A DNA stretch of 59,129 bases, from NCBI GenBank assembly GCA_903831805.1, contig CAIKZD010000016.1:1-59129 (forward strand). Direction: 5' to 3'. A model generated the notes under the pieces. The model did no database searches, had not been told where the DNA came from, and saw nothing but the letters and a program-made list of their open reading frames with translations. Origin of the DNA: an uncultured bacterium. GTDB taxonomy: Bacteria; Patescibacteriota; Minisyncoccia; Moranbacterales; UBA2206. Shown piece by piece: positions 11,378 through 28,754 of this stretch (position 1 is the first letter of the stretch; every line of letters starts with the position of its first letter). The translations under genes were made by a program, and so were the position numbers.

Positions 11378-11388
11378 AATCTGGGGTT

Positions 11389-11494: not shown

Positions 11495-11542
11495 TTTGAG
11501 TAGAATAATATGCAAGATATTTTCAGATTTAGAAAAGCTTAA

Positions 11543-12745
11543 ATGAAATTGCGCAATATAAATTTAGCGACCTTGATTCTTCTGGCACTGCTCTTTTCAA
11601 GCTTGGCTTTTTTTGTGAGTGCGCAGGAAAATGCATCCACCACGAACAATGTTTTTTTAGATTCCGATCAAGACGGTCTGACTGACACGGAAGAAAAGTT
11701 GTATGGCACGGATCCGCACAATGCAGACACTGACGGCGATGGCTATTCGGACGGAGCCGAGGTAAAGGCTGGCTATGATCCTTTGAAAAAAGCCCCGAAT
11801 GATCGGCCGGTTGCGCCGGTAAGTAATCCGACAAGTCAATCTGCTACCTCACAAGCCACTGTAGCCAGCACGGACAGCGCGCCAGCGGACACTTCCGGGA
11901 ACCTGACCAAACAGGTAGCGCAAAAAATTTCCAGCCTGACCAGTCAGGTGGACCCGAACAACCCACAAACTTCGATGGATGAAATTCAGAAAATCGTGAC
12001 GGATTCCTTGGGGGTGCAGGATAAGCCCGTTGCGTTACCGGAAATAGACCCGGCCACAATCCACATCAAAAAACAGGACTATAAAGAAAGCCAGAAAAAG
12101 GAATTGATGAAAGAAGATTTTTCCAATTATATCGCCAAGGTTTTTTATATTTTTGCCAGTAATTCACCGACTCCCATCACCTCGGCCTCCGATATGACTT
12201 CCACTATGATGAAAACCGCAGAACAGCTCATTGCGGCCATTTCCACACAAAATCCCGCCGCGATGGAAGGTATTAGTAAAAGTGGTGCGACCATCCTTGG
12301 TCAATTGAAAGAGGTGGAAGTGCCGGCTGACTTGGTCGATTTGCACATTAAGGCTTTGCAATATGCTATGTATGCCCAAGGTTTGAAAGATTTGATCAAA
12401 CCAAACGCAGAAGATCCATTGTCAACCGTGGTGAATTTTTCCCAAATCGGATCTTTCATCCAGAGTCTCTCCAGTTTTTTCAATGATGCGCAAACTAAGA
12501 TGGCGCAGTATGATGTCAGTTATGAAGACATTCAAGCGAAAATGAAAGGCTTTGGCGTGGAATTGCCGGCTTTAACCGACATCAGCGGTGTGGCCAATGC
12601 CATCTCTGCAGTTTCGTCAGACTCATCGACCGCTACGACTTCTGCAACCCCTGCAACCCCTGCAACCATCACAACTCCTGCTACAACCACGGACTCCAGT
12701 CAGGGGAATATAACTGATTTTTCAACGGGAAATGTCACACCATAA
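11543..12745 (+). CDS. Secreted protein with thrombospondin type-3-like Ca-binding repeats
   Basis: 400 aa with a signal peptide (LALLFSSLAFFVSAQEN), the repeat DSDQDGLTDTEEKLYGTDPHNADTDGDGYSDGAEV and a Thr/Pro-rich C-terminus. Confidence 0.7.
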   Translation: MKLRNINLATLILLALLFSSLAFFVSAQENASTTNNVFLDSDQDGLTDTEEKLYGTDPHNADTDGDGYSDGAEVKAGYDPLKKAPNDRPVAPVSNPTSQSATSQATVASTDSAPADTSGNLTKQVAQKISSLTSQVDPNNPQTSMDEIQKIVTDSLGVQDKPVALPEIDPATIHIKKQDYKESQKKELMKEDFSNYIAKVFYIFASNSPTPITSASDMTSTMMKTAEQLIAAISTQNPAAMEGISKSGATILGQLKEVEVPADLVDLHIKALQYAMYAQGLKDLIKPNAEDPLSTVVNFSQIGSFIQSLSSFFNDAQTKMAQYDVSYEDIQAKMKGFGVELPALTDISGVANAISAVSSDSSTATTSATPATPATITTPATTTDSSQGNITDFSTGNVTP

Positions 12746-13691
12746 AAATAATTCAGGCAAAAAAAGCCAGATAATCTGCACCGCTCTTCTGGTGGCGTGT
12801 TTGTTTTTTGCTTACCCCCAAAAATCTGAGGCGGCTCTCTGGCCGGGCATCGATCCTGAAATAACCCGGGTGTTGGATACCGTGTATGACATGATTCAAG
12901 GGATGATTATGGGAGCGCTGAAGCAAGCCGCGGTGAAAATGATCAATAGCCAGGTGGACGGCATGATGAGCGGTCAAGGGATGTCAGGCGGAGCGGCTTT
13001 CATCACGGATTGGAAAGATTATTTAATCGATCAACCCAAAGACGATGCTAAACTCTACATGAACAGCTATTTGTCAAAAATGACTTCCGGCGCGGGTTCA
13101 TCTGTCATGGGTTATGTGGCAGAAGGTTTTTCCCAGGAAGGAGGCAGTTATGCTCACACGCTGACCCAAGCGGTCAAGGATAATCTTGAATTCGGAGATG
13201 CGCCGATAGCTTTTTCATACGAAGGCGATCCTGCCGCAATGTTTGACGGGAAAGATTTCAAGATGCTGGAGCTGTACACTTCCGGAGTGAACAATCCATG
13301 GAGCTTCGAGATGGAGGCGGAATATGCTTATGACAAAAAGTTAGCTGAAGAAGAAGCTGTCACCCAAGCCCGCGCCGTGGCCTATCAAGGCTTCACAGGC
13401 ACAGAAAGCGGAGGGGACGGAACCGTCACTTTTCCCGGTATCTTGACCAAAGAAATTGCGGCTAACGTCGAAGATCTGCCCAACAAGGTCATTGCGGCGG
13501 CCAAAAGCATTCCGGAAGTCATTACTTCCATTGTTTCCCAGATGATCACCAAAAAGATCCAGCAAGGTTTCAGCGGAGTGCAGAAAAAAGCTCAAAGTAA
13601 AAGCAGTACTCAATATAAATTCAGTACCAGCACAAACAAGGCTATGGACACATTGGGTCCTGGCGCGCGGTTCAATCCTCTCGGTCAGTAG
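12732..13691 (+). CDS. Secreted or membrane-anchored hypothetical protein
   Basis: 319 aa with an N-terminal signal/anchor (ICTALLVACLFFAYPQKSEA). It overlaps the upstream stop by 14 nt. No family recognised. Confidence 0.65.
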   Translation: MSHHKNNSGKKSQIICTALLVACLFFAYPQKSEAALWPGIDPEITRVLDTVYDMIQGMIMGALKQAAVKMINSQVDGMMSGQGMSGGAAFITDWKDYLIDQPKDDAKLYMNSYLSKMTSGAGSSVMGYVAEGFSQEGGSYAHTLTQAVKDNLEFGDAPIAFSYEGDPAAMFDGKDFKMLELYTSGVNNPWSFEMEAEYAYDKKLAEEEAVTQARAVAYQGFTGTESGGDGTVTFPGILTKEIAANVEDLPNKVIAAAKSIPEVITSIVSQMITKKIQQGFSGVQKKAQSKSSTQYKFSTSTNKAMDTLGPGARFNPLGQ

Positions 13692-13710
13692 AAAAATTTT
13701 TCCCATTTTC

Positions 13711-15891
13711 ATGACACCTAAAAAAACAAACAAACAAAAATTTTTATTCACTATCCTTTTCTTCCTGCTTATCACAGGCAGTTTTGGGTTGGGGAGAATA
13801 GATAAAGTTCATGCTGCTGGTGAGAACCTAGGTGAAGCAGGAGCGATATCAGCCGATGATATTGAGTTTGTTAAAAAAGCTAACGCAGAAAACGCTAAGA
13901 GTAAAAATGATGATGTTTGTCCTGGAGTTAGTCTGTTTGAACCCAAGACAATATTTAATTGCTTTCTCCTGATTGTGCTGCGCTTTTTGGGGATGATTTT
14001 GGAAGCTGCAGCCGCTCTTTTCAATTGGGTCATAAATCCGGAAAATATGAAGGCGGTCATTGACAATAAAGTCATTTATGAAACTTGGGCCATGGTGCGT
14101 GACACTTTGAACATTGCTTTTATCTTAGTGCTACTTTTCTCGGCGTTTGCCACGGTTTTTCAGGTGGACAAATATAGTTATAAAAGTCTGCTTAAGACGT
14201 TGATAATCATGGCGCTTTTGGTCAATTTCAGCTATCCCATTTCGCGCTTCATTATCGATTTTTCCAATTCATTGATGTACTATTTCATTAATAATCTCGG
14301 AATGGGCGACATAACTTCTTTTTCTTCTAAGATTGCCAAAGATTCCGCCTTAGGACAAATAATTGCTCCAAAAGGTGGCGCGGCATCTGACACATCCTTT
14401 CTTTTGGCCTCAGTCATTTTTGTGTGGATCTTCGCCGTCACCATTCTCATTATCGCCGGGCTTTTTCTGATCAGAATAGTGGCTTTGGCCATTCTCATTA
14501 TTTTTTCTTCTTTGGCTTTCACTGGGTCCATTGTGCCTTTTCTCTCAGGCTGGTCCGGCAAGTGGTGGGACAATCTTTTCAAGTATGCTTTTTTTGGACC
14601 GGTGATGGTGTTTATGCTGAACGTGGCTATGAAGATGATGAGCAGTATCAATGCCTCTAGTTTTGGAAAAATGGCAGAGATTGCCGGCAAGCAATCTTCC
14701 AATCCCAGTGTGATAGCCGCCATGGCTTTTTTCGCAATCCCCATTATCATTTTGTGGGCCGGTATTATGTTCGCGCAAAATATGAGCTTAATAGGAGCCG
14801 ACGCGGTGATTGGGCGAGGGAAGAAATTTATGAAATGGGCGCCGAGTGCGGTTGGCGCAGGCACTTGGGGGGCAACAAAGTGGGGAGCTAAGCAAACTGG
14901 TATTCCGGGAGGCTTGTCCCAAAAATGGGACAATTACAAAAAAACCGGGCCATTTTTTGGAAGTAACAAAAGAGAAGAACGCGAAGCTCGCATGGCAGGC
15001 AAAGGACCCTTTGCTGTTCCGCATGCCACTGATCAAGCGGATGCTAAAAGAATCAAGGAGGCCAAAGAAGCGCATGATATGGAGCATATGCTTACTGGCG
15101 ACCTGCAAAACATGAAAAAAACTGGTAACAAATTTGAACAAGCGGCTGCTATTCAGGAACTAGCTTCTAAGAATCAGGCTAAACGAGAAGATCTGGATCA
15201 AATAAGAGCAGCATTTGGAGATAAGAATGGTAAAGGTGGTGAGAATAGTCAAACCTTTAAGGCGCTGGTAGATAAAGTCAAAACATATGATCCAACCGCG
15301 GCTTTTTCTCACATCACAAATGAGGATGAAAGAAAGGAACATAAGAAAGACTTTATGAACAGCAGCCAGTTTGATGTTAAGAAGCTCAACGCAAATTCCC
15401 TTGGTGATGATGAACTCATGGAAATAATGTTTGCTGAGAATGCTATCTCCACTAAAGATATTATGGATATAAGTAAGGGCAGCCCAGGCAAGAAAACCGC
15501 CATGAATGGAGTGCTAAAAAACCTCGCGGCGAAAAATATTGCAATGACTGAAAATAATAAAAAAATTCACGCAGCTAATTTTGCGCAAACAGGAGAAATT
15601 GCAAATGACGATTTTGCTGAAGATATATTTTCCAATGCAAACGCCGATACGATAGCCAATATAAAAGATGACACTGCTGCCAAGTATGCTTATTTTCTGG
15701 CTCGTTTCGGAAAAAATAACTATAAAAAGACATTGGAAGGCATTAAGAGTGATACGGCAAGAAGAGCTATCAACGAAGCAACTTTGGATATTGACAAGAT
15801 CTTGCCGCATTTATCTCCTGAAGAAGCTGTGCGCGCAAATTCAGCCCAAAAAATGGCACAATCCGATCCTAGGTTGATGAATATGAGATAA
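13711..15891 (+). CDS. VirB6/TrbL-like polytopic membrane protein with ~330-aa hydrophilic C-terminal domain
   Basis: 726 aa with a signal-like N-terminus, then at least six hydrophobic spans (residues ~90-370). The tail is Lys/Glu/Ala-rich. Assignment rests on topology and on operon context with VirB4/PrgI. Confidence 0.55.
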   Translation: MTPKKTNKQKFLFTILFFLLITGSFGLGRIDKVHAAGENLGEAGAISADDIEFVKKANAENAKSKNDDVCPGVSLFEPKTIFNCFLLIVLRFLGMILEAAAALFNWVINPENMKAVIDNKVIYETWAMVRDTLNIAFILVLLFSAFATVFQVDKYSYKSLLKTLIIMALLVNFSYPISRFIIDFSNSLMYYFINNLGMGDITSFSSKIAKDSALGQIIAPKGGAASDTSFLLASVIFVWIFAVTILIIAGLFLIRIVALAILIIFSSLAFTGSIVPFLSGWSGKWWDNLFKYAFFGPVMVFMLNVAMKMMSSINASSFGKMAEIAGKQSSNPSVIAAMAFFAIPIIILWAGIMFAQNMSLIGADAVIGRGKKFMKWAPSAVGAGTWGATKWGAKQTGIPGGLSQKWDNYKKTGPFFGSNKREEREARMAGKGPFAVPHATDQADAKRIKEAKEAHDMEHMLTGDLQNMKKTGNKFEQAAAIQELASKNQAKREDLDQIRAAFGDKNGKGGENSQTFKALVDKVKTYDPTAAFSHITNEDERKEHKKDFMNSSQFDVKKLNANSLGDDELMEIMFAENAISTKDIMDISKGSPGKKTAMNGVLKNLAAKNIAMTENNKKIHAANFAQTGEIANDDFAEDIFSNANADTIANIKDDTAAKYAYFLARFGKNNYKKTLEGIKSDTARRAINEATLDIDKILPHLSPEEAVRANSAQKMAQSDPRLMNMR

Positions 15892-15898
15892 AACAATT

Positions 15899-17410
15899 AT
15901 GGATTTTTTAGCAAAACAACGGTCTCTTCCCGAACCGGTAAATACATTTTTCAGTTCAGATAATCCACGCTTAGAGCTGGAACGGTCTTGTTTTATGTAT
16001 GGAGTGCGAGATGAAAAAATTAAAAACATTTCCGGCCCAGTCGGTTTGATTTTTGTGGATGACGTCAAATTGGAAGATTTGCCAAAAATAATTTCAGAAA
16101 AATTGCAGTTGGACAAAAATATGGCCAATGGTTTAGCTTATGAGATAAACAAAAGAATTTTCAAGCCCTTCTTGGAGCACTTTACTGATGCTCAGAAACT
16201 ACTTGATGAATGGAGCAAGCAAAAAGCAGAGCCGATCATATCTGAAGACGCCGCTTGGCAAAAAGTGTTGGAGATTGAGCCGTGGATTTTGGAAGAACAA
16301 ATGGAAGAAAAAAAAGCGCAAAGACAAGTCGTGCAAAACCTGGATGAAGCTCAAACTAAGCTGGAAAAAATGACTTTAACTGCAGCTCTCCAAAAATATC
16401 CGGAAATCAATGAACAGTTGATCACGAGTAGCCGCATCAACATCAAAAGTTTTTCCGAGCCGGCCCGACCGAATGTCAAAAACTGGTTGTCTGATTACAC
16501 TTTCACCATGGGCTTTGACGCGCATGACAGCGCGGCGCGCGGGATTTATCTTTTTCGTAATGAAAATACTAAAATTCTGAATCAAGTGGATAAAGACAAA
16601 TTGAATTATCTTTTGCGTGCCTATGACACTGCCATGCCGGTGGAAATCAACTTGACCTTGAAACAAATTATTTTCCCGCCGCGCTTCGACTCGCCTCAAT
16701 TCGACAAGACGCCTCGCCAAAGCGAGGCAGGACCGCGCGTGACAAGAGGGAACGCATCCGCCTTCACTAGAGTTACGGCGGACAAGAAAGCTATAGTGAT
16801 CAAGCCCTCCCTCGTTAAAGCTATGGCGGGCGAAGCGGGCGAAGAAGAAAAAAAGGAGGAAGAGCCGGAGGACATTTTTGCCAAACTCCCGACTTTTTTG
16901 CAAAAAACTTTTTGGAAATCTTCCGCCCCAAAAAAAGTTTCCGCGCCGTTGTCTTCTCCGCCGGAAAAAGCGCTGCCTGGAAATTTACCACCTAGTGAAA
17001 AGACTGCTCCAAAATTGAGGATTGGCGGTACATTTACCATTTCTCGCGCGTCGTCATCTCAACCGCTAAAACCTAAGGCAGAAATGGAAAAACCACTTAC
17101 GCACGAGACCATTTTGCCATCCGCGCGGAATATGGCGCCAAAAACCGATAGTCTTAAAATAAATGTGCCGGTTAATCTGCCCACCGTTCCGCCTAAAACT
17201 CCCACTTCCTTAGGAAAAGTGACTGTTCCGGCGGCCGCGCTTGTCTCTAAACCCAAAATTGAATTCACGTCTCCACAAAAACTGCCATTCGAAAAACAAC
17301 TTGCAGCACCTGAAGCAGAAAAAGAAGTAGGGCCGCAGCCAATAAAAATAACTCCGATAAATTTTCACCGAGACTTGCCGTCTAAAAATATCGTTGACCT
17401 CAAAAAATAA
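15899..17410 (+). CDS. Hypothetical protein with Pro/Lys-rich C-terminal half
   Basis: 503 aa with no clear TM segment. The C-terminal ~200 aa are rich in P, K and short PxK-type repeats. It starts 7 nt after the upstream stop. Confidence 0.6.
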   Translation: MDFLAKQRSLPEPVNTFFSSDNPRLELERSCFMYGVRDEKIKNISGPVGLIFVDDVKLEDLPKIISEKLQLDKNMANGLAYEINKRIFKPFLEHFTDAQKLLDEWSKQKAEPIISEDAAWQKVLEIEPWILEEQMEEKKAQRQVVQNLDEAQTKLEKMTLTAALQKYPEINEQLITSSRINIKSFSEPARPNVKNWLSDYTFTMGFDAHDSAARGIYLFRNENTKILNQVDKDKLNYLLRAYDTAMPVEINLTLKQIIFPPRFDSPQFDKTPRQSEAGPRVTRGNASAFTRVTADKKAIVIKPSLVKAMAGEAGEEEKKEEEPEDIFAKLPTFLQKTFWKSSAPKKVSAPLSSPPEKALPGNLPPSEKTAPKLRIGGTFTISRASSSQPLKPKAEMEKPLTHETILPSARNMAPKTDSLKINVPVNLPTVPPKTPTSLGKVTVPAAALVSKPKIEFTSPQKLPFEKQLAAPEAEKEVGPQPIKITPINFHRDLPSKNIVDLKK

Positions 17411-17421
17411 AAAAACATTCC

Positions 17422-17817
17422 ATGATTTCCAATGTCCCACAATTCATCGACACCGAAGACAAAATCGTCGGCCCGCTCACAGCCAAACAACTCGGCTGGC
17501 TGGCTATCGGCGGAGTGCTTTTCCTTATCAGTTGGAATATGCTCGATACTTCCGCGGCTATTGCCGCCGCCATTATCATTGGGGGCATTTTTGGGTCGTT
17601 GGCATTTTACCGTCCCTACAATCAGTCCCTCTTGAAATTTATCATTTCCTCCGTTTCTTTTGTTTTTAATCCCAAGATGTATATTTGGAAAAGAAACTAT
17701 GCTAATATAAAGATAGTGGCTAAAGCGAAAACCAAAGCGCCGGAAGTTACTATCATCCGAAAAACTGTCAGTGAAAAGAAAATCGCCGATATTTCAAAAA
17801 TGTTGGATCAAAAATAG
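17422..17817 (+). CDS. PrgI-family (VirB3-like) small membrane protein
   Basis: 131 aa. The N-terminus VPQFIDTEDKIVGPLTAKQLGWLAIGG followed by two hydrophobic spans matches the PrgI-family signature. Confidence 0.75.
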   Translation: MISNVPQFIDTEDKIVGPLTAKQLGWLAIGGVLFLISWNMLDTSAAIAAAIIIGGIFGSLAFYRPYNQSLLKFIISSVSFVFNPKMYIWKRNYANIKIVAKAKTKAPEVTIIRKTVSEKKIADISKMLDQK

Positions 17818-17828
17818 GATTTAGACCA

Positions 17829-17932
17829 AATTAACTTAATCAAGAGTGCTTTCTCCGCAGAGGCTTCACCTCAACGGAGCTTATGCCTAGTAGAGGTGAA
17901 GCCTCGGCAATGTACAGCACTTTAAGTTAATT
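17829..17932. repeat. Compound hairpin element inside the operon
   Basis: Inner perfect 13-bp stem GAGGCTTCACCTC (17860-17872) / GAGGTGAAGCCTC (17893-17905). Outer arms are AATTAACTTAA...AGTGCT and AGCACTTTAAGTTAATT. Confidence 0.8.
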
Positions 17933-17970
17933 CAATATAAAAAATAAGACAGATTTTTGTAATTTTAATT

Positions 17971-18660
17971 ATGGAAGCTCTCTATTCTAAAAAACTGGAT
18001 AACAAAAAAACCACTGCCCCGACGCAGGATTTTTTAGACGTGGCCGAAATCAAAGAGGATGTCATTGTTTTGAAATCAGGCACGCTGCGCGCCGTGCTGG
18101 CGGTCAACGCTATTAATTTTGACTTGAAATCCAGTGACGAGCAAGAAGCCATTATAACGCAATATCAAAACTTTCTCAATTCCATCGATTTTCCCATCCA
18201 GATTTTGATCAGTTCAAGAAAGTTGAATATGAAAAAGTATATGGATTTCTTGACCGGCAAAGAAAAAGGGCAGTCGAATGAGCTTTTACGCATGCAACTG
18301 GCGGAATATCGCAGCTTCATGGAACAACTCTCAGTCGTCTCCAATGTGATGGAGAAAAAATTCTACATCATTGTCCCATTTTCGCCGATTGAGAATGAAA
18401 ACAAGGGATTTTTCAGTAATTTGACCAGCCTCATGAATCCGCAAAAAAACATTTTAGAGAAAAGAGAGAATTTTGAAACTTACAAAAACCAGCTCTATCA
18501 AAGAGTGGACCATATCATTGTGGCGCTTTCCGGCATTGGCCTACGTCTTGTGCCGCTGAAAACAGAAGAGCTGGTTGAACTTATTTTTGATTCTTACAAC
18601 CCGGAAACATTCAATAATAGCGAACTGAAAGACACTAACCAGTTAGAACTGGCCAAATAA
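17971..18660 (+). CDS. Hypothetical protein resembling the N-terminal domain of Gram-positive-type VirB4
   Basis: 229 aa. TQDFLDVAEIKEDVIVLKSGTLRAVLAVNAINFDLKSSDEQEAIITQYQNFLNSIDFPIQILISS follows the pattern I recall for VirB4/ConE-type N-termini (recall-based). Confidence 0.5.
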   Translation: MEALYSKKLDNKKTTAPTQDFLDVAEIKEDVIVLKSGTLRAVLAVNAINFDLKSSDEQEAIITQYQNFLNSIDFPIQILISSRKLNMKKYMDFLTGKEKGQSNELLRMQLAEYRSFMEQLSVVSNVMEKKFYIIVPFSPIENENKGFFSNLTSLMNPQKNILEKRENFETYKNQLYQRVDHIIVALSGIGLRLVPLKTEELVELIFDSYNPETFNNSELKDTNQLELAK

Positions 18661-18682
18661 AAAACCAAATATTGCTCAACGT

Positions 18683-20509
18683 ATGTTAAATATATTCAAA
18701 AAGAAAGAGGCGGTTGCGTCAGAACCGACGCCATCTAGCGATGTTTTAGAATCGGAAAAATATTATCAAGAAGGCTTGTCCCGCCTCAACGACCTGATCG
18801 CGCCTTCGGCCATTAAGATTGAGCCAAAATATATCCGCGTGGGCGAAACATTGGCGCAAACGATTTTCATCGTGGCTTATCCAAGATTTTTGCATAGCAA
18901 TTGGTTTTCGCCCATCATCAACATTGATATGCCGATTGACATCTCAATGTTCATCCACCCGATTGAAACTTATGATATTTTGAAAAGTCTCAAGAAGAAT
19001 GCCACGCGCATCGAATCGCAGATCCACATGGAACAGGAGAAAGGCATGATCCGCGATCCAGCCTTGGAAACCGCAGTCCAAGACATTGATAGCCTGCGCG
19101 ACAATCTGCAGCAGGGTACGGAAAAGTTTTTTCGCTTCGACCTCTATATCACGGCTTATGGAGAAACAGAAAAAGAGCTTTACGAAATCACTAAGTCCAT
19201 TGAGGCTATCTTGGAAGCGCAACTGGTGTATGTGAAGCCGGCCATTTTCAAAGCGGAACAAGGTTTTAATTCCACTTTGCCGCTCGCCAATGATGAATTG
19301 GACATTGGGACTTCCATGAACAGCGCCCCGTTGTCCACCACTTTTCCTTTTGTTTCTTCCACTCTTTCCAGTGACACTGGCATTCTCTATGGCATCAATC
19401 GACACAATAACAGCCTTATTATTTTTGATCGCTTCGAAATGGAAAACGCCAATATGGTGGTTTTCGCCAAATCAGGTGCGGGCAAAAGTTATACTGTCAA
19501 ATTGGAAGTTTTGCGTATGATGATGCTCGGGACTGATGTCATTATCATTGATCCGGAAAATGAATATAAGCATCTGTGCGAAACGGTGGGCGGCTCATTT
19601 GTAAAAATCTCTTTGAATTCCGGCAACCACATCAATCCGTTCGATTTGCCACGCGTGGGTGATGATGAGGATGCAGAAGACATTCTGCGGAACAACATCG
19701 CTGCGCTGCTCGGGCTTTTGCACATCATGCTGGGATCCATCACGCCGGAAGAGGATTCCATTTTAGACAGAGCGGTCCGTGAAACATATGCTATGCGCGA
19801 CATCACCTCCGAAGTCAATTTTAATGCCCTGCCGAAAGAAGCCTATCCGACCATGTCCGACCTCTACCAGATTTTGAGCAGTATGGAAGGCGGAGAAAAT
19901 CTGGCCATTCGCATGGAGAGATATACGGAAGGAGTTTTCTCCGGTTTTCTCAATAAAACTTCCACTGTCAAAGTTGACAATCAAATGATGGTTTTCAATA
20001 TCCGCGACATGGAAGAAGAACTGCGGCCGGTGGCCATGTATATCGTGATGCAATTCATTTGGAATGAAATGCGGACCAATGTCAAAAGGAGGTTGGTGCT
20101 GGTGGATGAAGCGTGGGTGATGATGAAATATGACGACGCCGCTTCTTTCATTTTTGGCATTGCGAAAAGATGCCGAAAATATTTTACCGGGCTGACCACC
20201 ATCACCCAGGATGTCAACGACTTCCTTAGCTCGCGCTATGGCAAGGCGATTGTGACCAATTCCTCCATCCAGCTTCTCTTGAAGCAATCACCGGCCTCCG
20301 TGGACATCATTTCAGAGACATTCTATCTGACCGAACAAGAAAAATTTCTACTCTTGGAATCGAATGTCGGGGAAGGCATTTTTTTCGCCGGTAACAAACA
20401 TGTGGCCATCAAAGTGGTGGCATCCTACGCTGAAGATCAAGTCATCACCACCGACCCGGCCCAATTGGAAGAAATTGAACAAGCCAAGAAAGAGTTCAGC
20501 GATGAATAA
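18683..20509 (+). CDS. virB4: VirB4/TraC-like type IV secretion ATPase
   Basis: 608 aa with Walker A KSGAGKSY (GAGKS at 19475..19489) and Walker B RLVLVDEAW (DE at 20105..20110). The C-terminal region TTITQDVNDF...SSIQLLLKQ is typical of VirB4/DUF87 ATPases. Confidence 0.85.
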   Translation: MLNIFKKKEAVASEPTPSSDVLESEKYYQEGLSRLNDLIAPSAIKIEPKYIRVGETLAQTIFIVAYPRFLHSNWFSPIINIDMPIDISMFIHPIETYDILKSLKKNATRIESQIHMEQEKGMIRDPALETAVQDIDSLRDNLQQGTEKFFRFDLYITAYGETEKELYEITKSIEAILEAQLVYVKPAIFKAEQGFNSTLPLANDELDIGTSMNSAPLSTTFPFVSSTLSSDTGILYGINRHNNSLIIFDRFEMENANMVVFAKSGAGKSYTVKLEVLRMMMLGTDVIIIDPENEYKHLCETVGGSFVKISLNSGNHINPFDLPRVGDDEDAEDILRNNIAALLGLLHIMLGSITPEEDSILDRAVRETYAMRDITSEVNFNALPKEAYPTMSDLYQILSSMEGGENLAIRMERYTEGVFSGFLNKTSTVKVDNQMMVFNIRDMEEELRPVAMYIVMQFIWNEMRTNVKRRLVLVDEAWVMMKYDDAASFIFGIAKRCRKYFTGLTTITQDVNDFLSSRYGKAIVTNSSIQLLLKQSPASVDIISETFYLTEQEKFLLLESNVGEGIFFAGNKHVAIKVVASYAEDQVITTDPAQLEEIEQAKKEFSDE

Positions 20510-20520
20510 CATTTTTATGT

Positions 20521-21081: not shown

Positions 21082-21096
21082 ATTATTTTTAGTATT

Positions 21097-21756
21097 ATGC
21101 AATTGTCTACCCGTCATTTAGAAAAATTATCCCCGCACAAGGAACTCGTGGTCACGACCAGCGTGGCTATGCTTTGTCTTCTGCTGGCAGCTATTTTTCC
21201 GGCGGACAACGCCTTTCAATCCATCTCGAAAAATATTTTTTTTCTAGTTGCCCTGCCGATCCTCTACATCAAATTGATTTTGAAAAATGATCTCAGTCAG
21301 TGGGGTTGGAATTTGGCAAACAAAAAAACCGGAATGCTTTTGGCTGGTGGCGCATTCCTAGTGGGACTGGTTATCTTCTTTCTCATGATTAATTTTGCCG
21401 GTTTTTCATCCTATTACGTGATAGACCCACTCGTGAAAAACAATTTCGGTTTTTTCCTACTGTATGAGTTGGTTTTTTTCAATCTCTTTTTCTTCGCCCA
21501 AGAATTTTTCTTTCACGGTTTTATCCTTTCGGCCGCCCGTCAATTTTATATGCGAGCCATCTTTATCCAGTCAGCAATTTATTTTCTTACGCTTTTATTC
21601 GCTAAAACACCAATATTGCAATCCGCTCCGCTTATATATCTTTCTCTGGCGGGGGGATGGGTGACTTACAAGACGCGCTCTTTTGTCTACTCGTATATTT
21701 CCGGATTATTGTTTATAATAATATTAGATGCTTATATCATTCATTTAATAAAATAA
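21097..21756 (+). CDS. CPBP/Abi-like polytopic membrane protein (degenerate protease motifs)
   Basis: 219 aa with about six hydrophobic spans. AQEFFFHGF occupies the position of the CPBP EExxxRG motif, but later His motifs are not clear. Confidence 0.35.
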   Translation: MQLSTRHLEKLSPHKELVVTTSVAMLCLLLAAIFPADNAFQSISKNIFFLVALPILYIKLILKNDLSQWGWNLANKKTGMLLAGGAFLVGLVIFFLMINFAGFSSYYVIDPLVKNNFGFFLLYELVFFNLFFFAQEFFFHGFILSAARQFYMRAIFIQSAIYFLTLLFAKTPILQSAPLIYLSLAGGWVTYKTRSFVYSYISGLLFIIILDAYIIHLIK

Positions 21757-21762
21757 GTCGGT

Positions 21763-24441
21763 ATGAAAATAAAAAATATAAAAAAATATCTAGCCTTAAT
21801 TATCCTGCTGCTTCTTATGGCACCGGCTATTCTCGTTGTGCCGGCACAAGCAGCTGATCCTATTCAGGCGATATTGAATAATTCCGGTGGAGCAGCCGTT
21901 GAAGGCATGAATAGTATATTTAGTGACTTGGGGGTGGATAAGGGAGAGGTGAAAAATTCAGTGCAAACCATGAATGCTTCACGCCAGAAACAAACATCCC
22001 CACAGGTATCGCTTGAATTCAGCCCCAGCAATCCCAAATTAGGCGATCAGTTGTCGGCCACCGCCACTCCACTTTATTTCATAAACGATATTAAAAAAAT
22101 ATACTTTACCTGGTTCCTGAAACAAAAAGGTTGCGATCGGACAGATAATCCCGATGCTACTCAAAAAACAAAATGCGATCTCAATAATGATGGCCGCGTT
22201 GACATAGAAGACTATAAGATAAAAGCGATGCGCGTTTTGGCGAATGATGATTTCAGTTGGGAAAGTGCCGACTATTCGCATTCGGACGGAAAAAGCAAAC
22301 ACGATGCCGTTTATGGTGGCACGGATCAGCAGGGGAAAAAAGCGCATTGTTATGTGCAGGATGTTCAGTCCGGCGATGTCCATGAGATTGGTTGCAATTC
22401 GCACCTTTTTCCGGATGCTCCCGGCCAGAAAACCGGAGACAATTCTTTTGGCAAAGATGAAGAAAAATTTTGGCACACTGATCCGACGAGCGCGGATACG
22501 GCTCAATCGGGGAACACTGATGAAGCGAATGTGGCGGGACTCGGCTTGAATAAATTTTCTTGGAACTATACCCCGGGCGACCGATTAGGTGTGGTGGTGG
22601 AAGGCTCTTCCATTGAGCCCTCCCAAACAAGAGATGCCTCTTATCGCACGATGTGGGCCGCTCCGAAAGGGCTATGTTCCAATAGTACGATCCAATTGGG
22701 TAATAATTATCCGAAAGTCGCCACTGTTACGCTTTCAACTAAAGCTGACACGCCAGTGAGCGGGGAAACGACCACAGTGGTTGAAAAAACCACTCAAGAA
22801 CTGCTTAGTCAGCAAGGCGATTCAGGTACTGTCAGAACAACCGTGGTCGACATTACGACCGTCACCAATACTGCCACAGGCGAAGTGCTTTCTGAAAGCA
22901 CTGAAACGATTTCCACCAAAGAAGAAACTGTTGACCTGTCAGCTGAAAACGATCTGGCGCGTAAAGAGGGCGGCAGAACAGTTCAAGAAATTTCCAACGC
23001 TTCCGACCTGAATGACTGTTTGTATAGTAACTTGGTCACTCCCTCGGAAAATAGCCCAGAAAGTAATAAGATAGACGTGTCTCTTACTTATTCTCCCACT
23101 TCTCCGATAAACGACCCGACTGCTTATGGCGACCCGAAGTTGAGTAATGGCGATGATATTGTGGTTCAATCAAGCATTTCTAATGCGACCGACAACAACT
23201 ATTTGCAATACTCCTGGGAAGTTTTTATGTCGGACGATCCCAATCCGGATGATTGGGGCAGTCCTTTGCCTAAAGCATCTTTGCCCGGGGTGACTCAGAT
23301 GGAAGGTTTGGGAATCACTTCGCTTAAATTTAAATTAAACCTAGCTCACCCGAAAAAATATCTCAATGTTAAACTGACAGTCAAGGAGAATGCGGGACAA
23401 AGTTCCAGTGGGGACAATTTTTCGCGAAGAGGCCACACTAGCGTCCTAATCCCGATCACTTCTAGTAATAATAATATTAAAATTTTCAGCACCTTAGTTT
23501 CGGCGGTTGCTCCACCTAACATCTCCACGCCTTACGTCAGCATGAACAAAGAAATTTGCACTACTGGCACGGAAATGGCTATTTGCCCCGTCACTAAGAA
23601 CAGTATCATTGGGCTTAAGGTGAATGCCGCTTCCCTAACTGATTTTCTGTGGACAATCAACGGTGCGCCTGTTACCAATAAAGAATGTTTCTACAGCGAT
23701 TGCAATATCGATAAACAAACGGGGGTGGCTTATTTTCCGGCCCTAGCAGAAGTGGGGAAGAATTATACGGTGGCTTTAACGGCTACCAACCAAGAAACGG
23801 GGGCAAAGGTCAGCTTGTCTAAGACTATTCAAGTGATTGATCCGGCCATTACTATCTCTTCCGCGGATGAAAGTGTTTGTAAACCGGTTCTTTTAGGCAA
23901 CTATATCGATCTAAAAGAAAAATCCTGGCCTGATTATAGCAAGACCAATTTTTTGGGACTGGCGGACAAGCCGATAAAGCTGCAAGCCGATGTTAAAGGT
24001 TTCACGCCCTTGCCGGGAAATTTGACCTGGACAGTTGATGGGCAAGAGGTGACCGCCTCCAACGTCGCTACGCTGGGCTACACATTAGACGATACCGGCG
24101 GTATTATTCTGCCGGCCAAAGCGCTTGGGGAGGATTATGAGGTTTCCGCTACCACCTTTTATGCTCAAGATATTCTCACGAAAAACGCGCTGAATAAATA
24201 TTGGGGTGTTTCCTATGACCAATTTTATGAAAAGAAAGTTTCCAGCAAGATAAGTATAAAATTACAAGCCAGCACCGATATGGTTGCTTCTGCTCAAGCG
24301 AAAAAAATTATGGCTACTATTTATAGCGGTACCCCGGCTTATCTGGCCTTTCTTTTGAGGATTGCACTCACAGCCTTCGTTATCCTTTTTCTGTCGCAAC
24401 TGACGCTGACGTTTTTCCCTAAAATAAACAGTCTCGATTAA
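21763..24441 (+). CDS. Large secreted surface protein with C-terminal TM anchor
   Basis: 892 aa with a signal peptide (LLLLMAPAILVVPAQAA), a dockerin/EF-hand-like loop DLNNDGRVDIEDY, a Thr-rich segment and a C-terminal hydrophobic anchor (LTAFVILFLSQLTLTFF). Confidence 0.7.
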   Translation: MKIKNIKKYLALIILLLLMAPAILVVPAQAADPIQAILNNSGGAAVEGMNSIFSDLGVDKGEVKNSVQTMNASRQKQTSPQVSLEFSPSNPKLGDQLSATATPLYFINDIKKIYFTWFLKQKGCDRTDNPDATQKTKCDLNNDGRVDIEDYKIKAMRVLANDDFSWESADYSHSDGKSKHDAVYGGTDQQGKKAHCYVQDVQSGDVHEIGCNSHLFPDAPGQKTGDNSFGKDEEKFWHTDPTSADTAQSGNTDEANVAGLGLNKFSWNYTPGDRLGVVVEGSSIEPSQTRDASYRTMWAAPKGLCSNSTIQLGNNYPKVATVTLSTKADTPVSGETTTVVEKTTQELLSQQGDSGTVRTTVVDITTVTNTATGEVLSESTETISTKEETVDLSAENDLARKEGGRTVQEISNASDLNDCLYSNLVTPSENSPESNKIDVSLTYSPTSPINDPTAYGDPKLSNGDDIVVQSSISNATDNNYLQYSWEVFMSDDPNPDDWGSPLPKASLPGVTQMEGLGITSLKFKLNLAHPKKYLNVKLTVKENAGQSSSGDNFSRRGHTSVLIPITSSNNNIKIFSTLVSAVAPPNISTPYVSMNKEICTTGTEMAICPVTKNSIIGLKVNAASLTDFLWTINGAPVTNKECFYSDCNIDKQTGVAYFPALAEVGKNYTVALTATNQETGAKVSLSKTIQVIDPAITISSADESVCKPVLLGNYIDLKEKSWPDYSKTNFLGLADKPIKLQADVKGFTPLPGNLTWTVDGQEVTASNVATLGYTLDDTGGIILPAKALGEDYEVSATTFYAQDILTKNALNKYWGVSYDQFYEKKVSSKISIKLQASTDMVASAQAKKIMATIYSGTPAYLAFLLRIALTAFVILFLSQLTLTFFPKINSLD

Positions 24442-24449
24442 ACAAAAAA

Positions 24450-25325
24450 ATGAAAAGAAAAAAAATAATTTTCGCCATTATTGCGGCTTGCAATTTTTTT
24501 CCAGCTTTGGTTTTGGCTGCTTTTTCCTATACTCCGATGGAAGCTATTCCAGGTTTTGGCAAGCCAGCTGATTTTCCTACCTACATCATGGCGGTTTACA
24601 AATTTGGGCTTTGGACTATTGGCATTTCGGCCATGCTTATGATCGTTTTGGGCGGCTATATGTATCTGGTTTCGGCCGGCAATGCTTCCCAAACCGGTAA
24701 AGCCAAAGGTGTGATAGCTGACGCCATCGTTGGCCTGATTCTGGCCTTGGTTTCTTGGCTTTTGCTCTACACGATCAATCCTGACCTGGTGCAATTTAAT
24801 ATTGGCCAAACAACTTCTACTCCTGCTCCTAATCCTACTCCTCCTAATCCTAATCCTACTCCTCCTAATCCTACGCCTCCTAATCCTAAGCCCAATCCTA
24901 ATCCTCTGGCTAATTGTAGCAATCTTAACCCAGCATTGAACTCTGAATTACAAAATGCTTCTTCTCAAAGTGGAGTGCCGACATCAGTACTAGCGGCCTT
25001 TATGCAAAGAGAATGTACTCCGGCAATGTCTAATCCTAATGCTTGTTCATCGAACAATTCTTATGGCGCCGGTGGATCGATGCAGTTTACAGATCCCACT
25101 TGGAATACCTACAAGTGTTCCGGAAGCAAATTTAATCGGCAAGATGCGCTAAATTGCGCGGCAAAAAAAATCGCCAAAGACAGCGGAGGAGACTATAGTG
25201 ACGCAGGTCTGGCCAAAGCGGCGAAAAGATATTGCGGATCATGTACCGATCCCAAAGCCTGCGGAGGAGATTACTGCGATGGAATAATCAGAAATAATAA
25301 TGCCTACAAGAGTTGCGCAACTTAA
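24450..25325 (+). CDS. T4SS pilin-like (VirB2/TrbC-type) domain fused to an SLT-like, Cys-rich domain
   Basis: 291 aa with a signal peptide and two TM spans around GGYMYLVSAGNASQTGKAKG. A PNP-repeat linker precedes a C-terminal domain containing ...RECTP...GAGGSMQFTDPTWNTY (lytic-transglycosylase-like) and 10 Cys. Confidence 0.7.
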   Translation: MKRKKIIFAIIAACNFFPALVLAAFSYTPMEAIPGFGKPADFPTYIMAVYKFGLWTIGISAMLMIVLGGYMYLVSAGNASQTGKAKGVIADAIVGLILALVSWLLLYTINPDLVQFNIGQTTSTPAPNPTPPNPNPTPPNPTPPNPKPNPNPLANCSNLNPALNSELQNASSQSGVPTSVLAAFMQRECTPAMSNPNACSSNNSYGAGGSMQFTDPTWNTYKCSGSKFNRQDALNCAAKKIAKDSGGDYSDAGLAKAAKRYCGSCTDPKACGGDYCDGIIRNNNAYKSCAT

Positions 25326-25344
25326 TAAATATATTTATAAAAAT

Positions 25345-26589
25345 ATGACTCTGTTCCAAAAAACTTTGCGTGTTACAATTTTTATCACGATCTTCTTTAT
25401 ATCCTCAGTATTCACTAAACCCGCCTCGGCCCAGCTTGCTACATGCAATACCTTTGACTTTCCGTCTGTCCAAAATAATATTTTGCGTTTTTTCAATTGT
25501 GATTCGGGAGAAGTTCAAGAATTTAACGGGCAGAACGCGCTTGTTTCAATTTCCGGCCAAGAAAATTTAGGGGGAGGTGTGCATAGTTTTGTTTGGTCGC
25601 CGGATGGGAAAAAGGCCTTTGTGCTTTCAGAAAACGTTTTAGCAGCCGTACAGACGCTCAAATTTTATTCTTCCAATCGGGAGTTGAACTCGCTGAATTG
25701 GTGGTCTTATGATTTGGACACCGACCAGGCAACGCTACTGGATAAGGATATTCTTTCGCTGGGCTGGGCTTCCAATAATGCTGTCATATATAATCTGAAT
25801 AATAAGGCGTTGTATGTTTCCAATGCAGACCTGAGTAATCCGGTCAAACTAATGGATATTAAAGGCGACTCATCCGATATAAATGACATCTTGGCGTCTG
25901 TAAGCTTGGGCGGTGTAACTATTTTTCCAATGGAAAAAGGATTCTATTCGGTCGAGACAAGCAGTCATATAGCCACCTATTTCCCATTATCCGGTGGAAT
26001 TCAAAAAATCATTACCGACCCTTTCAAAGAAGATTATTTCATCATCAAATCAGGCAGTGCCTTGTATAAATTTACTGTGGCCGACAAGAAATTGGTGAGT
26101 ATCAATGATAGTTTCTCCGCCGATGATATGTCATTTTTAAACAATAGCAATTTAATTATCGTCGGAAAAGATGGTAAAGCTTACTCATATGACATTAGCT
26201 CAAAGGCAGAATTACCGATTCCGCTCAAGGCTGCCGGCAATATTTTCAAAGTATTTTTTTTAGGAAATCCAGACGAATTCGTGTTCACCATTGGAAAAAA
26301 GATATACAAGGGTAAAACGGATGGATCAATCACTTTACTTTCAGTGGATGGAATAGCTTCTAGCAGTTCCGAAATTCCCAATAATAACTCTTTGTCACAA
26401 AAGCAACCACTATCCACCCCGGCAAATACAGCAACAGTAAATACCACAACGGCAAATCAATCCAGTGCGGATAACAGTTTGAGTCCGACAGCCCTAATAA
26501 CTATCCTCGTTATCGTTCTGGTTATTATAGGTGTCGTGCTTATTTACAAAAGAGTATCTTCCAAAAAAAATCCTAGCGATAAATCATAA
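25345..26589 (+). CDS. Secreted beta-propeller-like protein with C-terminal TM anchor
   Basis: ORF 25300..26589 trimmed to the ATG at 25345 (MTLFQKTL..., signal-like). It has a PD40-like motif FVWSPDGKKAFVLS and a C-terminal anchor LITILVIVLVIIGVVLIY. Confidence 0.6.
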   Translation: MTLFQKTLRVTIFITIFFISSVFTKPASAQLATCNTFDFPSVQNNILRFFNCDSGEVQEFNGQNALVSISGQENLGGGVHSFVWSPDGKKAFVLSENVLAAVQTLKFYSSNRELNSLNWWSYDLDTDQATLLDKDILSLGWASNNAVIYNLNNKALYVSNADLSNPVKLMDIKGDSSDINDILASVSLGGVTIFPMEKGFYSVETSSHIATYFPLSGGIQKIITDPFKEDYFIIKSGSALYKFTVADKKLVSINDSFSADDMSFLNNSNLIIVGKDGKAYSYDISSKAELPIPLKAAGNIFKVFFLGNPDEFVFTIGKKIYKGKTDGSITLLSVDGIASSSSEIPNNNSLSQKQPLSTPANTATVNTTTANQSSADNSLSPTALITILVIVLVIIGVVLIYKRVSSKKNPSDKS

Positions 26590-26637
26590 GAATTGTCGAG
26601 AGGAATTTTAAATTTATATATCCTTAATTTTTAGATT

Positions 26638-27600
26638 ATGCACAAAAAATTGTTGTTAGCTGCTTGTTTAGTTTTTTTAACCAGCACTTCTCCTTTGTTT
26701 TTCTTGACTCCATATCCGACTAAGCCAAATACAGCGCTCGCGGCTAGTTGTACCGGGGAAAATGGAGAAGCAGGCACCTGTACGGCTTCGGCCACTGATA
26801 TTGCTTGTCCTACTGGGACAACCCAAGCTATATCTAAGGAGCCTTGCCCAAATGGCGGTCATTATTGTGTCAGTAAGACAGAAGGTACGGGCGCTAAGTG
26901 CCAAGCTGATAAGGGTACTTGCGTGTCTAATTCAATTGGCGGCAGTAGCAATTGTCCAAGTGGAACCAGTCCAGTTTCGGTCGCAAATGATTGTCCGTCG
27001 TTCAAGAGTTGCTGTGTAACAACTGATACTCCACCTACTCCTACTACTCCTGCTCCACCCCGTACACCGCTAGAAGAATGTAAGGTAAAATGCTACGCAT
27101 CTGGCACAGTCACTACGGGTAACTCCGACCTGGATGCATGCGTTAAAAAGTGCAATGAATCATATCCCATTAACCCCACTCCTACTGATCCTACTCCTAC
27201 TCCTCAAACCGGCAAAGGCCTTATCCCTTGCGGACATGGAGACAATCCGGCGGATGCTTGCACACTGTGTGATTTTATCATTGGCTTTAGGAAATTGATC
27301 GATCTGGCTTCAGAGTTGCTCATTACAGTGGCGGTCACGGGGATTTTCATTTCGGGTGTTATGTATATAGTCTCAGCCGGAAGCCAGCTCACAGAACAAG
27401 CCAAAAAATTCCTCTCCGCCAGCTTAATCGGTTTTGCCATCGTCTTGTCCGCTTGGCTTTTGGTCAACGTAGTGATGTGGGCGCTTTCCTTCAATCCGGA
27501 GATGAGTATCGGAAAAAAGGATTGGCACACTTTCGAGTGCACCAGTCAAAGCGCTTCCTCCTCCACTACTCCGACTGGATCCACCATCGCCGCCAAATAG
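26638..27600 (+). CDS. Cys-rich ectodomain fused to a C-terminal T4SS pilin-like domain
   Basis: 320 aa with a signal peptide and 18 Cys in ~190 aa, with PT-rich linkers. The pilin module follows: ...FISGVMYIVSAGSQLTEQAKKFLSASLIGFAIVLSAWLLVN. Confidence 0.7.
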   Translation: MHKKLLLAACLVFLTSTSPLFFLTPYPTKPNTALAASCTGENGEAGTCTASATDIACPTGTTQAISKEPCPNGGHYCVSKTEGTGAKCQADKGTCVSNSIGGSSNCPSGTSPVSVANDCPSFKSCCVTTDTPPTPTTPAPPRTPLEECKVKCYASGTVTTGNSDLDACVKKCNESYPINPTPTDPTPTPQTGKGLIPCGHGDNPADACTLCDFIIGFRKLIDLASELLITVAVTGIFISGVMYIVSAGSQLTEQAKKFLSASLIGFAIVLSAWLLVNVVMWALSFNPEMSIGKKDWHTFECTSQSASSSTTPTGSTIAAK

Positions 27601-27620
27601 GTTTTCGTTAAAATAAAATT

Positions 27621-28754
27621 ATGTCTATACTTAAAAAAATATTTTTTCTTTCGGTTTTTGTCTTTGTTTTGTCGCTGCTTTTTTGGGGCATCTATAAACT
27701 TTCTTTTAAAGATAATTCCGCCACTGTCGCGGATAAAACTTCGACTAAGCCCGCGACACCAGTCGCCGCCGCGAATAAGATCGAGCCGGTTTCTGGAGAA
27801 GCAGTCATTGCGCCGACTTTGGCGGCGGATGGGAATAGTCTGAACTATTTTTTGGAAAAATCAGGACAACTTTTGCAAGTGGATTTTTACGGCAAGGTGC
27901 AACAGACCCTCTCGGCTAAAAATATTTCCAATTTGTCGGATGCGTATTGGTCGATAGATAAATTGAAACTGGTCATTAAGACTAAGGCGTCCGATAATGG
28001 TGCAACCTTTTCTTTTTTGGATCTTGCTTCCGGAGAAACTAAACCCTTGAAAGACAATTTGGACGAGGTGGCGTGGCAGACCAATGCCAACCGGATCCTG
28101 TATAAATATTACAGTCCTGAGACGAAAGAGCGCACGCTGAATGTGGCCGATCCGGATGGGAGCAATTGGACTAAGATCGCGGATTTGAACTATAAAAGTC
28201 TATCTGTGGCGCAAATTCCCAAGACCGGGTTGATTTCTTTCTGGAATACCGGTGATGCCTACGTCCAAACAAATTTTCAAGCCATCCCACTGCTTGGCGG
28301 GACGGCGAAAACTATTCTCGCGACTGGTTTTGGCGCGGATTATCTGTGGAACTTTTCAGGCGATTGGGCCTTGATCAGTCACAGCGATTCTCAAGGCGGG
28401 GCCAAGATGGAATTGGGGATGGTGAATGTGAATGGTGGGGAGTATAAAAATCTAGGCATCCCGACTTTCATCGACAAGTGTGTTTGGGCGGAAAATGGCC
28501 AAGCCATCTACTATGCCTTGCCCGGAGGGATTCCTGACAATTCCGTCTTGCCCAATGATTATAAAGCCGGGAAGTTCAAAACTGCAGATACTTTCTGGAA
28601 AGTCAATATTAAGACCGGAGAAAAAACTCGTTTGATTGAGACGGCGGATATCCCCGGGCAATATGATGCCAGTCAACTATTTTTGAATAAAAGTGAAAGC
28701 CTGCTTTTTTTCGTGAATAAAATTGATGGCAAGTTGTATCGATTGACGCTTTAA
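27621..28754 (+). CDS. Membrane-anchored beta-propeller-like (TolB/PD40-like) protein
   Basis: 377 aa with an N-terminal anchor (FFLSVFVFVLSLLFWGIY) and repetitive beta-rich segments. Last gene of the co-directional block. Confidence 0.55.
   Translation: MSILKKIFFLSVFVFVLSLLFWGIYKLSFKDNSATVADKTSTKPATPVAAANKIEPVSGEAVIAPTLAADGNSLNYFLEKSGQLLQVDFYGKVQQTLSAKNISNLSDAYWSIDKLKLVIKTKASDNGATFSFLDLASGETKPLKDNLDEVAWQTNANRILYKYYSPETKERTLNVADPDGSNWTKIADLNYKSLSVAQIPKTGLISFWNTGDAYVQTNFQAIPLLGGTAKTILATGFGADYLWNFSGDWALISHSDSQGGAKMELGMVNVNGGEYKNLGIPTFIDKCVWAENGQAIYYALPGGIPDNSVLPNDYKAGKFKTADTFWKVNIKTGEKTRLIETADIPGQYDASQLFLNKSESLLFFVNKIDGKLYRLTL

Follow-up and report, generated by a model that had tools for sequence, protein, structure and literature searches.

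The stretch of DNA analysed here (the window) comprises positions 1 to 59,129 of contig CAIKZD010000016.1, assembly GCA_903831805.1, from an uncultured bacterium. On its + strand, at 11543–28754, lies a cluster of 14 co-directional genes, o01 to o14, that very probably encodes a chromosomal, vertically inherited Patescibacteria type IV secretion system (T4SS) of Candidatus Moranbacteria (Parcubacteria; reported under the GTDB class Paceibacteria). The listing of open reading frames (ORFs) and an independent set of public gene calls, made on contigs of identical sequence, both give 14 genes, not the 15 counted in an initial annotation that had been made from the sequence without database searches; no fifteenth gene was found, a 111-aa ORF at 11211–11546 being rejected because it has no family match, is uncalled on the identical contig and overlaps ubiA on the opposite strand. 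From o01 to o14 the gaps are −14, 19, 7, 11, 153, 22, 11, 15, 6, 8, −26, 48 and 20 nt, the value of −26 nt between o11 and o12 becoming +19 nt if o12 begins at the ATG at 25345 preferred by gene callers. This tight packing agrees with the range of −14 to 48 nt first described, as does the single exception of 153 nt, a spacer between the prgI-like and trsD-like genes (o05 and o06) that holds a long hairpin at 17829–17932 (+ strand).

The VirB4 ATPase of the cluster is encoded by o07 (18683–20509) and is of the monoderm CD1110/MPF-FATA type. It matches the Pfam families P-loop_TraG (1e-30), AAA_10 and DUF87, and its score with the NCBIfam model for the "VirB4-like conjugal transfer ATPase, CD1110 family" (conju_CD1110) lies above the cutoff (383 bits vs 325; E = 2.4e-114). 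The Walker A (GAGKS, 19475–19489) and Walker B (DE, 20105–20110) motifs are exactly where they had been placed when the protein was called VirB4-like by eye. Among solved structures it is closest to the VirB4 domain of Thermoanaerobacter (PDB 4AG5, 1e-51), and TrwK of R388 reaches only 5e-5. The nearest 120 proteins are 78–92% identical to o07 and are from Moranbacteria or Parcubacteria wherever a source is named; the best plasmid-borne relatives are all monoderm, with 28–36% identity, and the nearest relative found outside the Candidate Phyla Radiation is 36.5% identical. These nearest neighbors strongly suggest that o07 belongs to the Patescibacteria VirB4 clade. VirB4 has been found in 2,417 of 3,035 Patescibacteria genomes, and nearly all of these proteins form one monophyletic clade nested in MPF-FATA (Quinonero-Coronel et al. 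2025; PMC12102498).

A weak similarity of o07 to CedB (8.7e-11) and CedD raises a different reading, in which the cluster would be a DNA-uptake machine like the archaeal Ced system or the T4SS-derived ComB of Helicobacter, and the reliance of Patescibacteria on scavenged nucleotides would fit such a role. The CedB match amounts to 41 bits, however, far under the 383 bits of the CD1110 model, and in Southlakia epibionticum competence needs ComEC, a comEC mutant being viable whereas the T4SS is essential (PMC10633639; PMC12857230). We thus regard DNA uptake as very improbable.

The o07 protein lacks an N-terminal domain of its own, spanning only positions 180–734 of the 752 positions of the CD1110 profile. 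Directly upstream, o06 (17971–18660) encodes a TrsD-type protein of 229 aa that matches the CD1110 VirB4 model at positions 2–120 (8e-7), VirB4_CagE at positions 6–164, and the NCBIfam models VirB4_plasma (Mbov_0397 VirB4) at positions 92–284 (5.8e-12) and TrsD (1.3e-7); in the public annotation it is on record as TraC-like (PF26593). Because these are N-terminal positions of VirB4 profiles that are missing from o07, VirB4 is, by homology, a split ATPase here, made up of the detached TrsD-type N-domain o06 and the ATPase body o07, and a split VirB4 with TrsD has already been described in Patescibacteria (PMC12102498). A direct comparison of the TrsD family with the VirB4 N-terminal domain by hhalign is weak (E = 0.034, probability 1.5%), the identification being decided by the NCBIfam profiles, and the TrsD family profile found nothing in the PDB.

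The small membrane protein o05 (17422–17817) is PrgI/VirB3-like, as had been proposed; it matches PrgI (PF12666) at 1.1e-8 with 35.9 bits, above the Pfam gathering cutoff of 27, and TcpE at 7e-4. The 726-aa product of o03 (13711–15891) is a probable VirB6/TrbL-like polytopic membrane protein with at least five segments resembling transmembrane (TM) helices and a hydrophilic C-terminal extension of about 300 aa. TrbL was matched in 3 of 16 orthologs of o03 (best 1e-9). For the window copy a weak TrbL_3 match is on record and our own profile scan gave no match, and the family profile matched none of the PDB sequences; the VirB6/TrbL assignment is probable from the orthologs, the topology and the gene position, and not from the window copy itself.

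Two cluster proteins carry VirB2-like pilin domains. In the 291-aa o11 (24450–25325) such a domain is N-terminal and is followed by a Pro-rich linker and, at the C-terminus, by an SLT-type lytic transglycosylase domain (VirB1-like function). The window copy scores just under the T4SS_pilin cutoff (2e-5; 25.0 bits vs 26.6) and matches SLT only at E = 0.026, but all 17 orthologs match the pilin family and 12 of them match SLT (best 3e-26), and an alignment shows that the window copy retains the catalytic Glu (MQRECT) and the G-x-MQ motif. By these homologies o11 is a pilin–SLT fusion, so that the VirB1-type domain of the initial annotation is upheld in spite of its weak match in the window; a single-sequence PDB search with o11 gave nothing useful. 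In the 320-aa o13 (26638–27600) the pilin domain is C-terminal, behind a Cys-rich ectodomain and a Pro/Thr linker. It passes the Pfam cutoff narrowly (5.3e-6; 26.8 bits vs 26.6), T4SS_pilin is matched in 8 of 8 orthologs, and there is a weak match to the Mbov_0395 pilin-like family.

Far stronger pilin matches than those of o11 and o13 come from an array near the right end of the window. It begins with a tandem double VirB2-like pilin of 210 aa (57963–58595, + strand), which matches T4SS_pilin in two stretches (2.1e-22), TrbC/VirB2 (2.5e-9) and the NCBIfam Mbov_0395 pilin-like family, a Mycoplasma-ICE family (2.6e-10; ICE, integrative conjugative element). A second VirB2-like pilin of 119 aa (58653–59012, + strand; T4SS_pilin 1.3e-10) follows, and a longer contig of the same organism has a third, of 125 aa, past the window end (L060:10483–10860). 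The three-pilin array sits between a gene for an ABC substrate-binding protein and nusA, 29 kb from virB4. The five T4SS functions that had been recognized by eye (VirB4, PrgI/VirB3, the pilin domains, SLT and, mainly through its orthologs, a probable VirB6) are thus borne out, the VirB4, PrgI and pilin assignments having survived the profile searches, but that list was incomplete in that it overlooked both the TrsD-type o06 and the pilin array at 57963–59012.

The pairing of pilin domains with other domains allows the speculation that o11 and o13 are minor pilins built into the T4SS filament, with their extra domains displayed on it. Such a wall-cutting, host-binding pilus could let ultra-small epibionts penetrate the host envelope and form a conduit by which macromolecules are taken up or delivered; we consider this particular arrangement unlikely, if conceivable.

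The genes of a DNA-transfer module were sought with Pfam in every window ORF that reaches 110 aa, and also among the genes called in the 10 kb past the right end. No relaxase, type IV coupling protein (T4CP), VirB11 or integrase was found among them, in agreement with the initial annotation as far as the window is concerned; that annotation had also allowed that a relaxase and coupling protein might lie just outside, and none occurs in the 10 kb beyond the right end. What lies there is the third pilin gene followed by NusA, trigger factor, ClpP and other core genes, with nothing conjugative, and the left end of the window coincides with contig ends on record. The remaining window ORFs of at least 110 aa with Pfam matches are housekeeping genes only, the pilin array apart. 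Within the cluster, no protein has a Pfam or NCBIfam match to VirB11 or to the VirB7/VirB9/VirB10 outer-membrane core.

These results bear on whether the cluster is a working conjugation or DNA-export machine, whose relaxase, oriT and coupling protein would be encoded elsewhere in the genome or be too divergent to recognize. Its core is homologous to monoderm conjugative T4SSs, the part of the genome covered here is 59 kb plus 10 kb, and VirD4-like genes are present in most Patescibacteria genomes, usually far from virB4 (PMC12102498). On the other hand, apart from the lack of a relaxase or T4CP in the DNA searched, relaxases are found in just 103 of 3,035 Patescibacteria genomes (PMC12102498), a distant T4CP homolog of Southlakia is non-essential whereas its T4SS genes are essential (PMC12102498 citing PMC10633639), and the cluster is fixed in the chromosome beside housekeeping genes across the order. 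Conjugation is, in our judgment, decidedly unlikely to be its function.

The chromosomal setting is well defined. Upstream of the cluster lie genes for KsgA (8717) and UbiA, and downstream are two Wzy-type genes, a glycosyltransferase gene and a flippase gene, then the jag-yidC-rnpA-rpmH group (33653–35421, − strand; RnpA at 34935, RpmH at 35284) 5 kb from the cluster. G+C content is 0.42–0.46 across the cluster and 0.36–0.46 in the rest of the window, without a compositional break, the nearest tRNA gene is 12 kb away, and no tRNA or repeat boundary flanks the cluster. We compared this arrangement with that in related genomes; a scan of one genome per species gave 56 loci, almost all labeled Moranbacteria or Parcubacteria. 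By tblastn with the window proteins, the order KsgA-UbiA-o01...o11-o13-o14-Wzy-Wzy is collinear in about 25 species-level metagenome-assembled genomes (MAGs) of these 56 loci, with identities of 25–86%; across the syntenic loci VirB4 is 65–92% identical, and the accessory proteins go down to 25–35%. Thirteen of the 14 genes stay uninterrupted and in the same order even where identity drops to 25–35%, which requires long-term purifying selection, and the conservation of the cluster together with its housekeeping flanks in about 25 Moranbacteria MAGs makes it a vertically inherited chromosomal system and not an ICE remnant.

The same observations speak to the idea that the cluster is a functionless remnant in decay, left by an integrated conjugative element or plasmid after the loss of its transfer genes. 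By conjugative standards the gene set is indeed incomplete, with no T4CP, relaxase or recognizable VirB8, and o12 is lineage-specific and frameshifted in one contig. But the idea is contradicted by the synteny just described, there is no integrase among the ORFs searched and no element boundary or compositional break, and the order of the flanking housekeeping genes is conserved; the cluster is almost certainly not such a remnant.

Comparison with systems already known in the phylum is informative. Wang et al. (2023; PMC10633639) showed that SEML1_0006–0019 of Southlakia epibionticum are essential for epibiotic growth; that gene set resembles Gram-positive conjugative T4SSs and has pilins but is without a coupling protein or relaxase. 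Near Patescibacteria virB4 genes, TrsD, PrgI, VirB6 and PF18895 pilins have been reported, with KsgA, RnpA and RpmH as common neighbors (PMC12102498). The Moranbacteria cluster is like other Patescibacteria-clade T4SSs in being chromosomal with no relaxase or T4CP nearby, in the TrsD and PrgI that precede its MPF-FATA-type VirB4, in a probable VirB6-like protein that bears a large hydrophilic extension, in PF18895 VirB2-like pilins that include an array, in a peptidoglycan hydrolase downstream of VirB4, and in its ksgA, rnpA and rpmH neighborhood. Its core genes are arranged as in the Southlakia locus (VirB6 - x - PrgI - TrsD - VirB4 - large protein - hydrolase). It differs from Southlakia in that the hydrolase there is a stand-alone multi-lysozyme protein, whereas here an SLT domain is fused to a pilin domain, and from Patescibacteria-clade T4SSs more generally in its dedicated pilin array, which is distant from virB4 and not in the cluster, in the lack of a detected NTF2/VirB8-like protein, and in a set of order-specific accessories (the TSP3 protein, o02, the o04 family, and the CPBP-like, Ig-chain and propeller-like proteins). 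The T4SS reading of the initial annotation is therefore correct but already published for the phylum (PMC10633639; PMC12102498; review PMC12857230), and what is particular here is the Moranbacteria accessory set, the pilin–SLT fusion and the detached pilin array.

Outside the phylum, a similar gene content is found in the monoderm MPF-FATA T4SSs (CTn2/CD1110, pCF10 Prg/Pcf, pGO1 Trs), which likewise have a CD1110-family VirB4, TrsD, PrgI/VirB3, a VirB6-like protein and a wall hydrolase and have no outer-membrane core. Unlike them, the present cluster is off mobile elements, has VirB2-like pilins, and has no relaxase, coupling protein or VirB8-like PrgL/TraM found nearby. As shown by homology, the cytoplasmic-membrane core derives from monoderm (MPF-FATA, CD1110-type) conjugation machinery. 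The diderm effector T4SSs Bordetella Ptl and Brucella VirB provide a functional precedent only: they too are without a VirD4-type coupling protein and export proteins instead of DNA, but they are of the MPF-T class, have the VirB7/9/10 outer-membrane core and VirB11, and operate in diderm hosts.

By analogy with T4SS machines in general, VirB4, tethered by VirB3 to VirB6, would power the extraction of pilins from the membrane, and the extracted pilins would assemble into a pilus or conduit passing through a gap in the wall cut by the SLT domain. The TSP3 protein o01, the helical o02, the Ig-chain protein o10 and the propeller-like o12 and o14 would provide an extracellular scaffold and contact surface. 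As the cluster comes with neither a relaxase nor a coupling protein, its likeliest role would be contact-dependent interaction with a host cell (attachment and/or the transfer of proteins or other molecules) and not conjugation, in line with the finding that Southlakia needs the homologous cluster to grow as an epibiont. Profile searches, synteny and the absence of a transfer module all agree with the initial description of a T4SS-derived, non-conjugative chromosomal apparatus in a small-genome bacterium.

Several points weigh against this reading as a vertically inherited Patescibacteria T4SS with a role in host contact. Membership of o07 in the Patescibacteria clade was judged from its nearest neighbors and not from a tree. 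The window VirB6 (o03) taken alone is below significance, although its topology and position would fit VirB6, and no VirB8-like component (NTF2-fold; PrgL/TraM/TcpC) was found by sequence, o02 being the sole candidate modeled. The hairpin after prgI means that the "operon" may perhaps be two transcription units, and transcription, assembly and substrate of the cluster are all inferred. Finally, some other part of the genome could encode a coupling protein, which would leave room for transfer of DNA or for T4CP-dependent transfer of proteins.

Among the accessory proteins, o01 (11543–12745) is a secreted 400-aa protein with a hydrophobic N-terminal segment and bacterial TSP3 (Ca-binding) repeats, after which comes a helical region; the repeats, which had been seen by eye, match TSP3_bac at 4.2e-13, and syntenic orthologs are 31–60% identical. 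The secreted 319-aa o02 (12732–13691) is a member of a narrow, Moranbacteria-restricted family with only 33 homologs at E ≤ 1e-5 and no Pfam or NCBIfam match. It is predicted to be all-helical, the AlphaFold2 model being of mediocre confidence (pLDDT 62.6). We considered it as the missing VirB8/TcpC-like protein and rejected it, since the PDB profile search was empty, the all-helical model lacks an NTF2 fold and Foldseek gave nothing below E = 0.9.

The 503-aa o04 (15899–17410) has no TM segment and is predicted to be cytoplasmic. Alignment of 23 Moranbacteria orthologs shows a conserved core of about 110 aa (aa 150–262), with a conserved FSSPQKLPFEK motif in the protein, then a variable, Pro-rich disordered stretch and a conserved C-terminal tail of the NIVNLKE type, most orthologs ending in N-[IV]-V-[ND]-L. 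The core has 791 cluster representatives (50% identity) at E ≤ 1e-3, mostly of 300–600 aa; in some of these proteins the domain occurs twice. Scans of the window protein, of ten syntenic orthologs and of ten family representatives gave no Pfam domain. By these matches the o04 core defines a putative unannotated domain family of about 800 clusters at 50% identity.

Between virB4 and o10 lie two polytopic membrane proteins. The small, 186-aa o08 (20521–21081) has a basic N-terminus and TM-like segments; it has no Pfam or NCBIfam family match, and orthologs occur in the closer relatives. The other, o09 (21097–21756), is CPBP/Rce1-like and probably non-catalytic: Rce1-like matches were obtained with 10 of 15 orthologs (best 1.7e-7), of motif 1 only xEFFF(R/H)G is left, and a conserved His was not seen at the positions expected for motifs 2 and 3.

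The largest protein of the cluster is the 892-aa surface protein o10 (21763–24441), which has a signal peptide. The AlphaFold2 model is confident (mean pLDDT 84.7) and predicts Ig-like beta-sandwich domains strung in a chain that ends in a C-terminal TM anchor, and Foldseek places it with multi-Ig adhesion and S-layer proteins (NCAM Ig1-3 at 3.5e-8, Nitrosopumilus S-layer, Hoc and GhpA); by sequence it has no Pfam match, and a single-sequence PDB search found nothing useful.

Two proteins had been called beta-propeller-like. The 377-aa o14 (27621–28754) is N-terminally anchored, extracytoplasmic and probably a TolB-like propeller; it is conserved over its full length at 29–64% identity in 34 loci, its orthologs match the PD40 and NUP159-propeller families, and its family profile finds only TolB (7MX5, 0.013) in the PDB, so that the proposal has weak support. 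For o12 (25300–26589; 429 aa, or 414 aa from the ATG at 25345) the proposal has nothing behind it other than a weak similarity to o14 (E = 0.008). This protein is secreted, has a C-terminal TM anchor and is possibly a beta-propeller. It is lineage-specific, with no ortholog in the loci of other species, and a frameshift splits its gene in one same-species contig (L003).

A cluster of related content is found in a Firmicute. Pontibacillus sp. ALD_SL1 carries, on an 898-kb non-mobilizable replicon (NZ_CP062975.1, 344328–370088; L064), the same module in the same order, with two PF18895 pilins, a TrbL-like 779-aa protein, a PrgI/TraL-like protein, a TrsD-like protein (31% identical to o06), VirB4 and a large hydrolase. 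Its VirB4 is 36.5% identical to o07 and is the closest in the plasmid collection; the annotation shows neither a relaxase nor a T4CP within 12 kb. It differs in its Firmicute host, in an M23 + NlpC/P60 hydrolase in place of SLT, in the lack of the Moranbacteria accessories, and in flagellar and chemotaxis gene neighbors. This cluster suggests that pilin-bearing, relaxase-less MPF-FATA clusters occur outside Patescibacteria, and together with the matches of window pilins to the Mycoplasma-ICE Mbov_0395 family it indicates that pilin-bearing monoderm T4SSs are not unique to Patescibacteria. Patescibacteria pilins may thus have come down together with the monoderm machinery instead of being acquired from diderm systems, and the Pontibacillus pilins bear on the question of their origin. 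The look-alike cluster in a cultivable Firmicute could also be a tractable model.

Much of the bacterial diversity that is still uncultivated belongs to the Patescibacteria, which live attached to other cells, and their T4SS is among the few machines shown to be essential for this attached lifestyle. The locus described here leaves the published picture unchanged and adds a cleanly resolved Moranbacteria example, with a split VirB4, a pilin–SLT fusion and a separated pilin array. The o04 family, the Ig-chain protein o10, the helical o02 and the CPBP-like o09 are conserved, unannotated partners and candidates for structural or genetic work.

The structured element that had been noticed in the 153-nt gap is a strong hairpin (17829–17932; minimum free energy −49 kcal/mol, z = −6.5), and 0 of 200 shuffled sequences fold as well. 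It has no Rfam match. The prgI–trsD spacer varies from 3 to 461 nt among relatives, several of which have unrelated long hairpins there and the two closest of which have none; the hairpin core is unique in the window and occurs, among the fetched loci, in this species and one other (L056) only, and comparable long hairpins occur in many other intergenic regions of the window. For these reasons we rejected a conserved RNA element, and the hairpin probably has a generic role in termination, attenuation or RNA processing.

Long and often near-perfect inverted repeats lie in the intergenic regions at 2462–2496, 3823–3883, 4152–4205, 5845–5918, 7473–7570, 11387–11419, 37832–37885, 45843–45884 and 50008–50079. 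The repeat at 11387–11419 is a perfect 16-bp palindrome in the divergent ubiA/T4SS spacer, upstream of the cluster; as an operator it was rejected because it is not conserved among relatives. At the equivalent position L056 has a palindrome, GGAGGCTCAACCTCC, that resembles the core of the spacer hairpin (GAGGCTTCACCTC). About 1 kb at 3593–4561 has no ORF of at least 70 aa and no Rfam match at gathering thresholds, and contains two strong hairpins.

In the remainder of the window, proteins without a Pfam or NCBIfam family are encoded at 2513–3592, 43853–45004 and 52727–53374, the first of which combines a disordered N-terminus rich in Pro and Thr with a single TM segment and an extracytoplasmic domain. 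The rpmH-rnpA-yidC-jag group is not adjoined by dnaA, its divergent neighbor being the gene for the CCA-adding enzyme, and GC skew tracks gene orientation and so is unusable for placing oriC. Eight tRNA genes form two groups, one at 40975–43149 (three Leu, Val, Phe and Gly) and the other at 45937–46105 (Cys and Leu), interleaved with rluD-like and rplS genes.

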